Shown here one piece after another: positions 46,483-46,701 of a DNA stretch of 64,000 bases. Below the pieces are notes generated by a model. The model ran no database searches. It saw only the letters and a program-made list of their open reading frames with translations, and was not told the DNA's origin. How positions within the stretch are numbered: position 1 is the stretch's first letter; each line of letters starts with the position of its first letter. A program made the translations under genes and the position numbers. Origin of the DNA: an uncultured Acidobacteriota bacterium (GTDB taxonomy: Bacteria; Acidobacteriota; Thermoanaerobaculia; UBA5066); contig CAVZYA010000002.1 of assembly GCA_963779415.1 (NCBI GenBank), positions 1,376,001 through 1,440,000 of the forward strand. The letters are read 5' to 3'.

Positions 46483-46517
46483 AAAAACAAAACCGGCCCC
46501 TTTGGAGAGGGCCGGTT
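46483..46517 (-). terminator. Intrinsic terminator of the met leader (attenuator 3:4)
   Basis: Minus strand AACCGGCCC-UCUCCAAAG-GGGCCGGUU followed by UUGUUUUU, 41 nt before the metY ATG. Confidence 0.85.
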
Positions 46518-46561
46518 GAAGTTCGCCGGTCTGGCCGGCTCGTCGTGTCTCTTAAGGCTCG

Positions 46562-46663
46562 TTACGCCGCGACACGCTCCTCCCTCTCCGCGCGGGAAGC
46601 GCTGCACATCCACATGGACATCTCCATGCCGATGAGGGTGGAAAGGGGAGCGATGGCGCTCAT
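46562..46663 (-). CDS. Met-rich leader peptide (MSAIAPLSTLIGMEMSMWMCSASRAEREERVAA)
   Basis: 33-codon ORF between promoter and terminator; Met at codons 13, 15, 17 and 19, then Cys; not in the ORF track. Confidence 0.78.
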   Translation of the reverse strand: MSAIAPLSTLIGMEMSMWMCSASRAEREERVAA

Positions 46664-46672
46664 GATCGACGG

Positions 46673-46701
46673 AAAGTAGACGCCGGGCGGAGCGTTGTCA
46701 A
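46673..46701 (-). promoter_or_regulatory. sigma70 promoter of the met leader/operon
   Basis: TTGACA (46701-46696), 17-nt spacer, TACTTT (46678-46673), 9 nt before the leader ATG. Confidence 0.8.

Follow-up and report, generated by a model that had tools for sequence, protein, structure and literature searches.

The methionine (Met) biosynthesis operon metY-aspartokinase-metX lies on the minus strand of a 64,000-nucleotide (nt) stretch, hereafter the window, of contig CAVZYA010000002.1 from an uncultured Acidobacteriota bacterium (assembly GCA_963779415.1, here G000). Our analysis suggests that the leader in front of this operon is a ribosome-mediated transcription attenuator whose regulatory codons are those of Met and, in relatives, also of cysteine (Cys), a reading to which we assign a probability of roughly 0.75. 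An original prediction, made from the letters of the window, had proposed a Met-codon attenuator at this site. Sequence comparison shows a genuine, conserved element whose role is almost certainly one in regulation. From the same material we infer its transcription start, the translation of its small open reading frame (sORF), ribosome stalling, a kinetic competition between RNA structures and the response to Met and Cys.

Read on the minus strand, as are all leader coordinates below, the leader starts with a promoter that is followed at close distance by the sORF, and it ends in an intrinsic terminator just ahead of metY (Table 1). Every base and coordinate originally given for the promoter, the sORF and the GC stem with its U-tract was correct, and the count of four Met codons in seven consecutive codons plus a Cys codon was exact; the stem-loop was also listed by the terminator scan. 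The 9 nt (CCGTCGATC) between the -10 box and the ATG of the sORF (46663-46661) hold no Shine-Dalgarno (SD) sequence, and the sORF, starting as it does 9 nt past that box, is probably translated leaderless or nearly so. Within the sORF, Met codons 13, 15, 17 and 19 (46627-25, 46621-19, 46615-13 and 46609-07) are followed by a Cys TGC codon at position 20 (46606-04). The core of a G-rich segment (segment 2) begins 17 nt past the last Met codon and is a perfect 8-bp complement of CCCTCTCC (46511-46504), which forms part of the 5' arm and loop of the terminator; here, too, the bases had been read correctly, including those of the nested helix CGUGUC/GACACG. The terminator is placed between metY and the sole recognisable promoter. 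Since only 41 nt, including the SD, separate its U-tract from the metY ATG (46441), there is no room for a separate metY promoter, and thus the operon would be transcribed only by read-through of the terminator. A search of G000 for nine-codon stretches with at least four ATG codons returned 50, one of which, the present one, was leader-like. Five of the other 49 were inspected as possible second copies of the leader and rejected; they lie in coding or antisense contexts, with no promoter or terminator.

A protein search with metY in 40 relatives recovered close orthologues in 22, which together with G000 make up a set of 23 loci (L001-L023; 60-100% identity). All 23 belong to one family (f1); the end of a contig truncates one more match (L024). 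Within the order, families f2 and f3 gave only paralogue-like metY matches (37-49% identity; these tallies include G025 and G030). Promoter, start codon, sORF, Met/Cys cluster, G-rich segment and terminator were all present at each of the 23 orthologue loci. In every one of them TTGAC is found at -36 to -41 from the sORF start codon, TAnnnT starts at -13 to -18, and the start codon itself, ATG or GTG, follows 7-12 nt past TAnnnT. The length of the sORF ranges from 23 to 54 codons, and clusters such as MVMSMCM, CMCMCMC, MSMWMCM and MCMCMRPM illustrate how Met alternates with Cys in the relatives. A GC hairpin with a T-tract ends 31-61 nt before metY (141 nt in L016) in 23 of 23 cases. The terminator is thereby established, RNAalifold on the MAFFT alignment giving 11 consensus pairs for it, 5 of them with compensatory changes, and recovering no other structure.

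In addition, a covariance model (R1) was built on alignment A5, spanning the region from cluster to terminator, and was used to search the order. It matched 58 of 151 genomes, including 52 among the 62 of f1 and 5 among the 81 of f2, the latter weakly or partially; the 7 genomes of f3 gave no match. The single match in G000 is full-length and lies at window positions 46485-46627. Weak extra matches were seen in some genomes (G083:C29:51456-51585; G029:C4:26811-26945; G042:C10:78319-78365), either outside the metY leader or as a second terminator-like match just downstream of it; they could be second attenuators before other genes, or due to chance. Regarding expression, 16 public RNA runs contained at most 0.09 of the sampled words. 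Assembly of four RNA runs at 85% likeness yielded contigs of relatives that cover the HU-like gene upstream of the leader and parts of metY. One groundwater metatranscriptome contig links the end of the HU-like gene with the part of a relative's leader corresponding to 46525-46609, and is too partial to give start, end or level.

The Met cluster behaves as a run of codons. Of the ATG triplets within the 23 sORFs, 98 share the frame of the start codon and 3 do not, and the number of nt between successive Met codons is always 0, 3 or 6. The codons between them vary even within a genus (GAG, GTC, AGC or CGA at one site; TCC, CCC or TGC at the next), and the frame to the start codon is always maintained across the 8-34 codons that precede the cluster. 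When clusters were scored as 2×Met+Cys in a nine-codon window, with a threshold of at least 7, all 23 sense leaders reached it, compared with 1 of 488 control windows of 300 nt from the same loci. The best nine-codon windows contain 3-5 Met codons across the 23 leaders. Outside the cluster the peptide is conserved neither in sequence nor in length. Segment 2, on the other hand, is conserved as nucleotides, as L006 reads the same bases in another frame after a 1-nt difference. Fixed regulatory codons within an otherwise free peptide are the signature of leader peptides.

These patterns also bear on two other explanations of the sORF. A TRAP-like oligomeric RNA-binding protein might bind the spaced AUG triplets at high methionine and thereby promote the terminator; an array of four to six AUG triplets, spaced regularly at about 6 nt, indeed recalls the triplet repeats of TRAP sites (PMC3064811). 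However, the spacings are exact multiples of three, the triplets are in frame with the conserved start codon and number just 3-6, Cys codons take Met positions in homologous leaders (see below), and no candidate protein was found, although no search aimed at one was made, which makes such a protein highly improbable. Alternatively, the sORF, with its own terminator, could encode a small peptide rich in Met and Cys that has a function of its own, such as metal binding, while metY would be reached by constitutive partial read-through. MxM and Cys motifs can bind soft metals, and the sORF does have its own promoter and terminator. Nevertheless, a functional peptide is very unlikely in view of the lack of conservation outside the cluster, a length that varies from 23 to 54 codons, and the C-terminal part that shifts frame in L006 while the RNA sequence stays. 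Moreover, the element is always found directly upstream of metY, once per genome, at the site that a SAM (S-adenosylmethionine) riboswitch takes in other lineages.

A permissive Rfam E-value scan of positions 46000-47200 gave nine sub-threshold matches (E up to 10) and no SAM riboswitch or T-box. The SAM-I family (RF00162) had no match in G000, its control being matched in 3 genomes, while SAM-II (RF00521) likewise had no match in G000, but its control matched no genome either. The matches that did appear were dismissed as noise: DsrA at 22.4 bits (gathering score 60; driven by the terminator), microRNAs, Guanidine-II at 17.2 bits inside metY, and ROSE_3. Taken with the 23 of 23 loci, the Rfam result supports the original proposal of a Met-codon leader ORF coupled to a terminator, as opposed to a riboswitch or T-box.

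An undescribed metabolite-binding riboswitch, responding to SAM, S-adenosylhomocysteine, Met or homocysteine, could still be formed by segment 2, hairpins A and B and the terminator, with the sORF being incidental or modulatory. Rfam covers described classes only, RNA-level conservation is seen in the downstream half of the leader, which is able to fold into a three-way junction, and Met/Cys sORFs co-occur with SAM riboswitches in some lineages (L032, L067, L068, L082). Yet the strongest conservation is codon-like, with 98 against 3 ATG triplets, multiples of three and a frame shared with a promoter-fixed start; a homologous leader exchanges Met codons and retains Cys; and unrelated leaders of other phyla share just Met/Cys codons and a terminator. 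Furthermore, the junction corresponds to the antiterminator form, so that a ligand would presumably turn a biosynthetic operon on, the wrong sign for an end product. We therefore regard a riboswitch as improbable and continue with codon-based attenuation.

The homologous leader just mentioned comes from outside the family. The original prediction had proposed a check of related Acidobacteriota for a conserved Met-cluster sORF and covarying helices. The sORF is indeed conserved, whereas covariation of the antiterminator helix is scarce (see below), and the nearest named metY loci belong to metagenome-assembled genomes (MAGs) of Gemmatimonadales/Gemmatimonadota (68-76% identity), the closest relatives being Gemmatimonadales and Gemmatimonadaceae, not Acidobacteriota. 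The organism of the window itself is accordingly a probable member of the Gemmatimonadota and not of the Acidobacteriota. Outside the family, R1 matches L045 from a Gemmatimonadaceae MAG (E=1e-11; 975-1114) and L084 from Gemmatimonadales UBA4720 (E=2e-8; 977-1113), and both leaders have the same terminator sequence as that of the window. The stretch aligned to the Met cluster reads ICRPCPC in L045, with the Met codons replaced and Cys kept or added, and LMCRISPC in L084, where Cys codons are also present. The loss of Met codons with retention of Cys in L045 fits a translated sulfur amino-acid sensor and not an AUG RNA motif. Given the alternation of Met and Cys in the relatives and the Cys-only sister lineage, the sensor probably responds to Met and Cys together.

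Similar leaders appear to exist well beyond this group. Among 80 named metY loci screened for Met/Cys clusters and Rfam families, a SAM riboswitch was found upstream of metY in 27 (SAM-I in 25 and SAM-II in 2, both of the latter Gemmatimonadota), and a cluster score of at least 7 in 15. The loci reaching that score, together with clearly related lower-scoring ones, include leaders with a Met/Cys sORF in Gemmatimonadales (L032, L036, L037, L083), in Chloroflexia/Limnocylindria (L034, L035, L038-L041, L051; most with a shared ...M(M/C)(S/A)M...RPR(S/R)AEDGV tail), in Terriglobia (L087-L089, L093, L094, L096; of the form ...MAMCMCM...) and in a gammaproteobacterial Wenzhouxiangella MAG (L049), as well as poly-Cys sORFs in Ignavibacteriota/Bacteroidota (L057, L067, L068, L082). 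By a simple rule, a hairpin with a T-tract follows the sORF in 16 of the 24 leaders inspected. No Rfam match was obtained at the Met/Cys-sORF loci of Chloroflexota, Terriglobia or the gammaproteobacterium, nor at L036, L037 and L083 of Gemmatimonadales. Leaders that share only Met/Cys codons and a terminator thus occupy the place that a SAM riboswitch has in other lineages. On balance, we favour the view that leader-peptide attenuation on Met/Cys codons, by sORFs that for the most part lack an SD or are leaderless and have a terminator behind them, is a widespread and so far undescribed control of metY that has arisen repeatedly (in Gemmatimonadota, Chloroflexota, Terriglobia and Gammaproteobacteria, and as poly-Cys behind SAM-I in Bacteroidota), replacing SAM riboswitches or acting in tandem with them, and in which the sensed codon drifts between Met and Cys within one family.

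Several features of these distant leaders were recorded along the way. In L032, a Gemmatimonadales MAG, a SAM-II riboswitch (604-678) lies about 220 nt upstream of a Met-rich sORF (...VMCMCMVMATMATTMTMTMT...), which is followed by a terminator before metY (about 900-1110). SAM-I followed by a poly-Cys sORF precedes metY in L067 (778-898, sORF at about 996), L068 (822-931, about 1046) and L082 (671-781, about 1082), with ...CMCNACCCCACCC and ...MCCCCCSCCC as examples of poly-Cys sORFs in Bacteroidota; from the order of the two elements this looks like tandem control by SAM and Cys-tRNA. The RPR(S/R)AEDGV tail after a short Met/Cys cluster is conserved in L034, L035, L038, L039, L040 and L051, and may reflect RNA pairing or an effect of the peptide on the ribosome. 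In Chloroflexia/Limnocylindria, metY starts 118-172 nt past the T-run of the terminator, where one was found by rule.

Concerning RNA structure, the helices of an attenuator, mutually exclusive as originally described, can be recovered by folding under the corresponding conditions. In the minimum free energy (MFE) fold of the free leader of the window, CUCCCCUUUCC pairs with segment 2 (the 1:2 helix), with a tip hairpin (CAUGGA/UCCAUG) made up of the Met cluster. In a fold of RNA that stops short of the 3' arm of the terminator and has its 5' part masked, segment 2 pairs instead with CCCUCUCC, enclosing hairpins A and B (the 2:3 helix). This stalled-state pairing between segment 2 and the terminator arm is predicted in the MFE of 21 of 23 loci, and the sORF stop codon lies within a local hairpin in 23 of 23 stalled-state folds. 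By eye, the GUGUC/GACAC of hairpin A is changed to GUGUG/CACAC in L007 and L008; between genera, hairpins A and B are wrongly placed in the MAFFT alignment, and formal covariation counts exclude these two. For the 2:3 duplex, 43 leaders were submitted to a test against dinucleotide shuffles and 38 were tested, 5 being without a rule-based terminator. In 36 of the 38, the segment that pairs best with the terminator arm begins 0-23 nt past the codon cluster. The duplex energy reached p≤0.05 in 12 and p≤0.1 in 18 of them, and the leaders with low p-values include the independent L087-L089 of Terriglobia and the gammaproteobacterial L049. Since related genomes are not independent, structure counts of this kind overstate support. 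Of the two predicted helices, the antiterminator (2:3) is in our view likely and the anti-antiterminator (1:2) plausible, with statistical and covariation support that is weak to moderate.

Based on these structures, the leader could work as follows. Transcription would begin at the sORF start codon or no more than about 3 nt from it, and the sORF would be translated without an SD. With ample Met-tRNA (or Cys-tRNA), the ribosome would pass the Met cluster and segment 2 and reach the stop codon in the loop of hairpin A; segment 2 would then be within the ribosome or re-paired to segment 1, hairpin A would be melted, the terminator would form, and the polymerase would halt 41 nt before metY. When charged tRNA is scarce, the ribosome would stall on the cluster, opening the long 1:2 stem that carries the Met codons at its tip and leaving segment 2 free 14-17 nt downstream. 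Free segment 2 would pair with the 5' arm of the terminator the moment this has been transcribed. The pairing would close a three-way junction that includes hairpins A and B, and the resulting antiterminator would block the terminator and let the operon be transcribed. If there were no translation at all, 1:2 would form and transcription would terminate. A ribosome protects roughly 12-15 nt downstream. With any of codons 13-20 in its A site it should reach at most about 46591, so that segment 2, at 46589, would be just free. On the stop codon it would cover about 46579-46550, where it would melt hairpin A and sit in the would-be junction, and should therefore block 2:3 and allow 1:2 and the terminator.

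A number of observations weigh against this mechanism. Regarding the helices, the 2:3 test on single sequences is non-significant in about half of the leaders, and a C-rich arm easily finds G-rich partners in GC-rich RNA. Compared with shuffles of the whole upstream region, the duplex energy was non-significant in most of the 23 loci, 4 of them having at most 13 of 200 shuffles that were as good or better. In alignment A5, 79.8% of the cells of the 2:3 helix are paired, only 1 of its 8 pairs changes on both sides (4 cells), and a slide by +1 still leaves 75.8% paired. RNAalifold on the truncated MAFFT alignment gave only 3 pairs and no antiterminator, and for no more than 6 of 23 loci did 1:2 pairing reach p≤0.1 against shuffles. 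Folding at equilibrium with ribosome footprints, a check that the original prediction had itself suggested, showed no switch, the terminator probability being 0.9-1.0 in every scenario in 21 of 23 loci. As no thermodynamic switch is seen, any switch must be kinetic. The Met cluster sits between segments 1 and 2, unlike in trpL, where the regulatory codons are inside segment 1, and the masking of segment 1 by a stalled ribosome is therefore a steric argument. As for the start of the leader, the promoter scan does not list TTGACA/TACTTT, since TACTTT, a weak -10 hexamer by consensus, shares only 3 of 6 positions with TATAAT, and the transcription start is a predicted one; we accept the promoter because it is conserved among the relatives. 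The antisense strand of the cluster scores 3-10, since CATG is palindromic, and because it too is ATG-rich the orientation rests on the promoter, the terminator and metY. In addition, metY, the kinase gene and metX carry one frameshift apiece in this assembly, as seen by tblastn with the G003 protein and three-frame translation, although one break per gene likely points to indel errors of long-read assembly over pseudogene decay. Finally, there is a difficulty specific to Met: its starvation also depletes initiator fMet-tRNA, which could reduce initiation on the sORF and so favour termination.

The lack of a switch in the equilibrium folds also raises the question of whether stalling on the sORF acts mainly by another route, such as Rho-dependent termination, mRNA stability or translational coupling, with the intrinsic terminator being secondary. 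There is a precedent in the leaderless poly-Cys sORFs of mycobacteria, which act on translation by SD sequestration and, in the part of the report available, have no intrinsic terminator (bioRxiv 10.1101/834739). In the present leaders, however, a strong hairpin with a U-tract stands between sORF and metY in 23 of 23 relatives and recurs in independent lineages, and the 5' arm of the terminator complements the segment just after the codon cluster. We thus consider a different route unlikely, and attenuation at the terminator remains the reading that we prefer.

Table 1. Features of the metY leader, its operon and the upstream neighbour in the window (A1, 23-sequence alignment).
Feature	Position	Strand	Details
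-35 hexamer TTGACA	46696..46701	-	Read from sequence; TTGAC invariant in alignment A1
-10 hexamer TACTTT	46673..46678	-	Spacer to -35 of 17 nt; TA invariant in alignment A1
Leader ORF (sORF) MSAIAPLSTLIGMEMSMWMCSASRAEREERVAA	46562..46663	-	33 codons and TAA stop (46564-46562); SD-less
Regulatory codon cluster Met-Glu-Met-Ser-Met-Trp-Met-Cys	46604..46627	-	Codons 13-20
Segment 1, CTCCCCTTTCC	46640..46650	-	Pyrimidine-rich tract CUCCCCUUUCC; able to pair with segment 2, candidate anti-antiterminator
Segment 2, G-rich	46569..46590	-	Core GGAGAGGG (46589-46582); complements segment 1 and terminator 5' arm and loop
Hairpin A, CGUGUC/GACACG	46544..46576	-	Arms 46576-71 and 46549-44; sORF stop codon in its loop; present in stalled-state MFE
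Hairpin B, GCCGG-CCAGA-CCGGC	46525..46539	-	From folding; similar small GC hairpin predicted in 55-nt tails of most relatives
Intrinsic terminator	46483..46517	-	Terminator scan: stem-loop 46517-46491, 10 pairs; U-tract to 46483
metY (O-acetylhomoserine sulfhydrylase)	45130..46441	-	TIGR01326, 539.5 bits; SD AAGGAG 46453-46448; frame break near 45335
Aspartate kinase	~44347..45136	-	Catalytic domain only, no ACT domains; two pieces match profiles at ~3-86 and 80-240 of 407; frame break near 44900
metX (homoserine O-acetyltransferase)	43339..44350	-	TIGR01392, 190.8 bits (C-terminal piece); frame break near 44230
HU/IHF-like gene	46841-47182		PF00216; upstream neighbour of the leader

The genes downstream of the leader follow the predicted order metY, aspartokinase, metX, with the qualification that the kinase consists of the catalytic domain only and that all three genes are frameshifted. 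The metX ATG overlaps the stop codon of the kinase gene. A 908-codon ORF in this region is an artefact of the frame breaks. The G000 assembly consists of 3 contigs with 68.5% GC. In G003, of the same genus, an intact metY is followed directly by metX, the kinase gene being absent between them. On the other side of the leader, just past the HU/IHF-like gene, a hairpin (GGGGAACCCG...CGGGTTCCCC) without a T-tract was noticed at about 46800-46835 (minus strand). It also precedes the leader in relatives of the genus and may be a terminator lacking a U-tract or some other conserved element.

The control of methionine biosynthesis is known to involve MetJ/MetR, SAM riboswitches and T-boxes, while the operons taught as examples of ribosome-mediated attenuation are trp, his, phe, leu, thr and ilv; to our knowledge, met is not among them. 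Our literature search found no Met-codon attenuator of methionine biosynthesis genes, although an earlier mention in subscription journals is possible. Compared with trpL, hisL, pheL, leuL, thrL and the ilv leaders of Proteobacteria, the leader described here has in common a short ORF rich in codons of the product, a terminator before the first gene and, as predicted by folding, the overlapping pairings 1:2, 2:3 and 3:4, and its mix of Met and Cys codons recalls the Thr/Ile mix of thrL. It differs in that Met/Cys codons are used, alternating rather than in a run and at the tip of the 1:2 stem, and in that there is no SD, the start being probably at the 5' end of the transcript; it is also found in a Gemmatimonadota-like lineage. 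SAM-I/S-box and SAM-II riboswitches upstream of metY are in the same place and presumably do the same job, but the signal here would be tRNA charging read by the ribosome and not the binding of SAM to RNA.

Closer parallels are offered by leaders with sulfur amino-acid codons. The leaderless poly-Cys sORFs of mycobacteria (Canestrari et al., bioRxiv 10.1101/834739) likewise precede sulfur-metabolism genes and sense charged tRNA by stalling. According to the available part of that report, they have consecutive Cys codons and control translation through SD sequestration in a very stable duplex, without a terminator, whereas a single Cys codon, Met codons in alternation with others and a conserved terminator mark the leader of the window. 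The Cys run and the terminator-less layout of the mycobacterial class are accordingly not seen in it. In Rhodobacterales, uORFC-8-2 before cysS (PMC8632094) is also a predicted ribosome attenuator with sulfur amino-acid codons and a terminator stem with a U run, and ribosome-mediated attenuation on Cys codons has been proposed for Cys leader peptides of Actinobacteria (PMC1262725). As far as the accessible portions of these two sources go, both types rely on Cys codons alone and act on cysS or on cys/cbs genes instead of metY; for the methionine operons of Actinobacteria, the latter source states that a conserved RNA regulatory structure was not seen upstream. The putative leader peptide Deide_09379 (MMFRFLSKMRMLRCS; PMC4007540, Table S9), which precedes the methionyl-tRNA ligase gene of Deinococcus deserti, shares spaced Met codons (M-R-M) plus Cys and a proposed attenuation; its transcript starts at the A of the ATG, and the leader peptide was predicted from the transcription start map only. 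That leader controls a tRNA ligase gene, as opposed to methionine biosynthesis here. A Xanthomonas met 5' untranslated region (PMC6230763) was considered as a precedent and set aside, being a SAM-I-like leader with no leader peptide in the portion of the study available, and no Met leaders were found in the accessible parts of PMC4833913 and PMC2965389. Attenuation on Met/Cys codons before metY is thus most likely a textbook mechanism in a use that was not found described.

If the proposed attenuator is true, the oldest known RNA switch would gain a new amino-acid specificity, and control in several phyla that have been little studied would follow tRNA charging rather than SAM. The lack of a recognisable SAM riboswitch at metY in these genomes would be accounted for as well. 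At the same time, the attenuator would raise the puzzle of how a Met attenuator can work although Met starvation limits the initiator tRNA for its own leader peptide. For genome annotation, the covariance model, together with a simple rule (upstream of metY, an sORF that lacks an SD and has spaced Met/Cys codons, plus a terminator), may be used to recognise a leader of about 200 nt that would otherwise stay unannotated.

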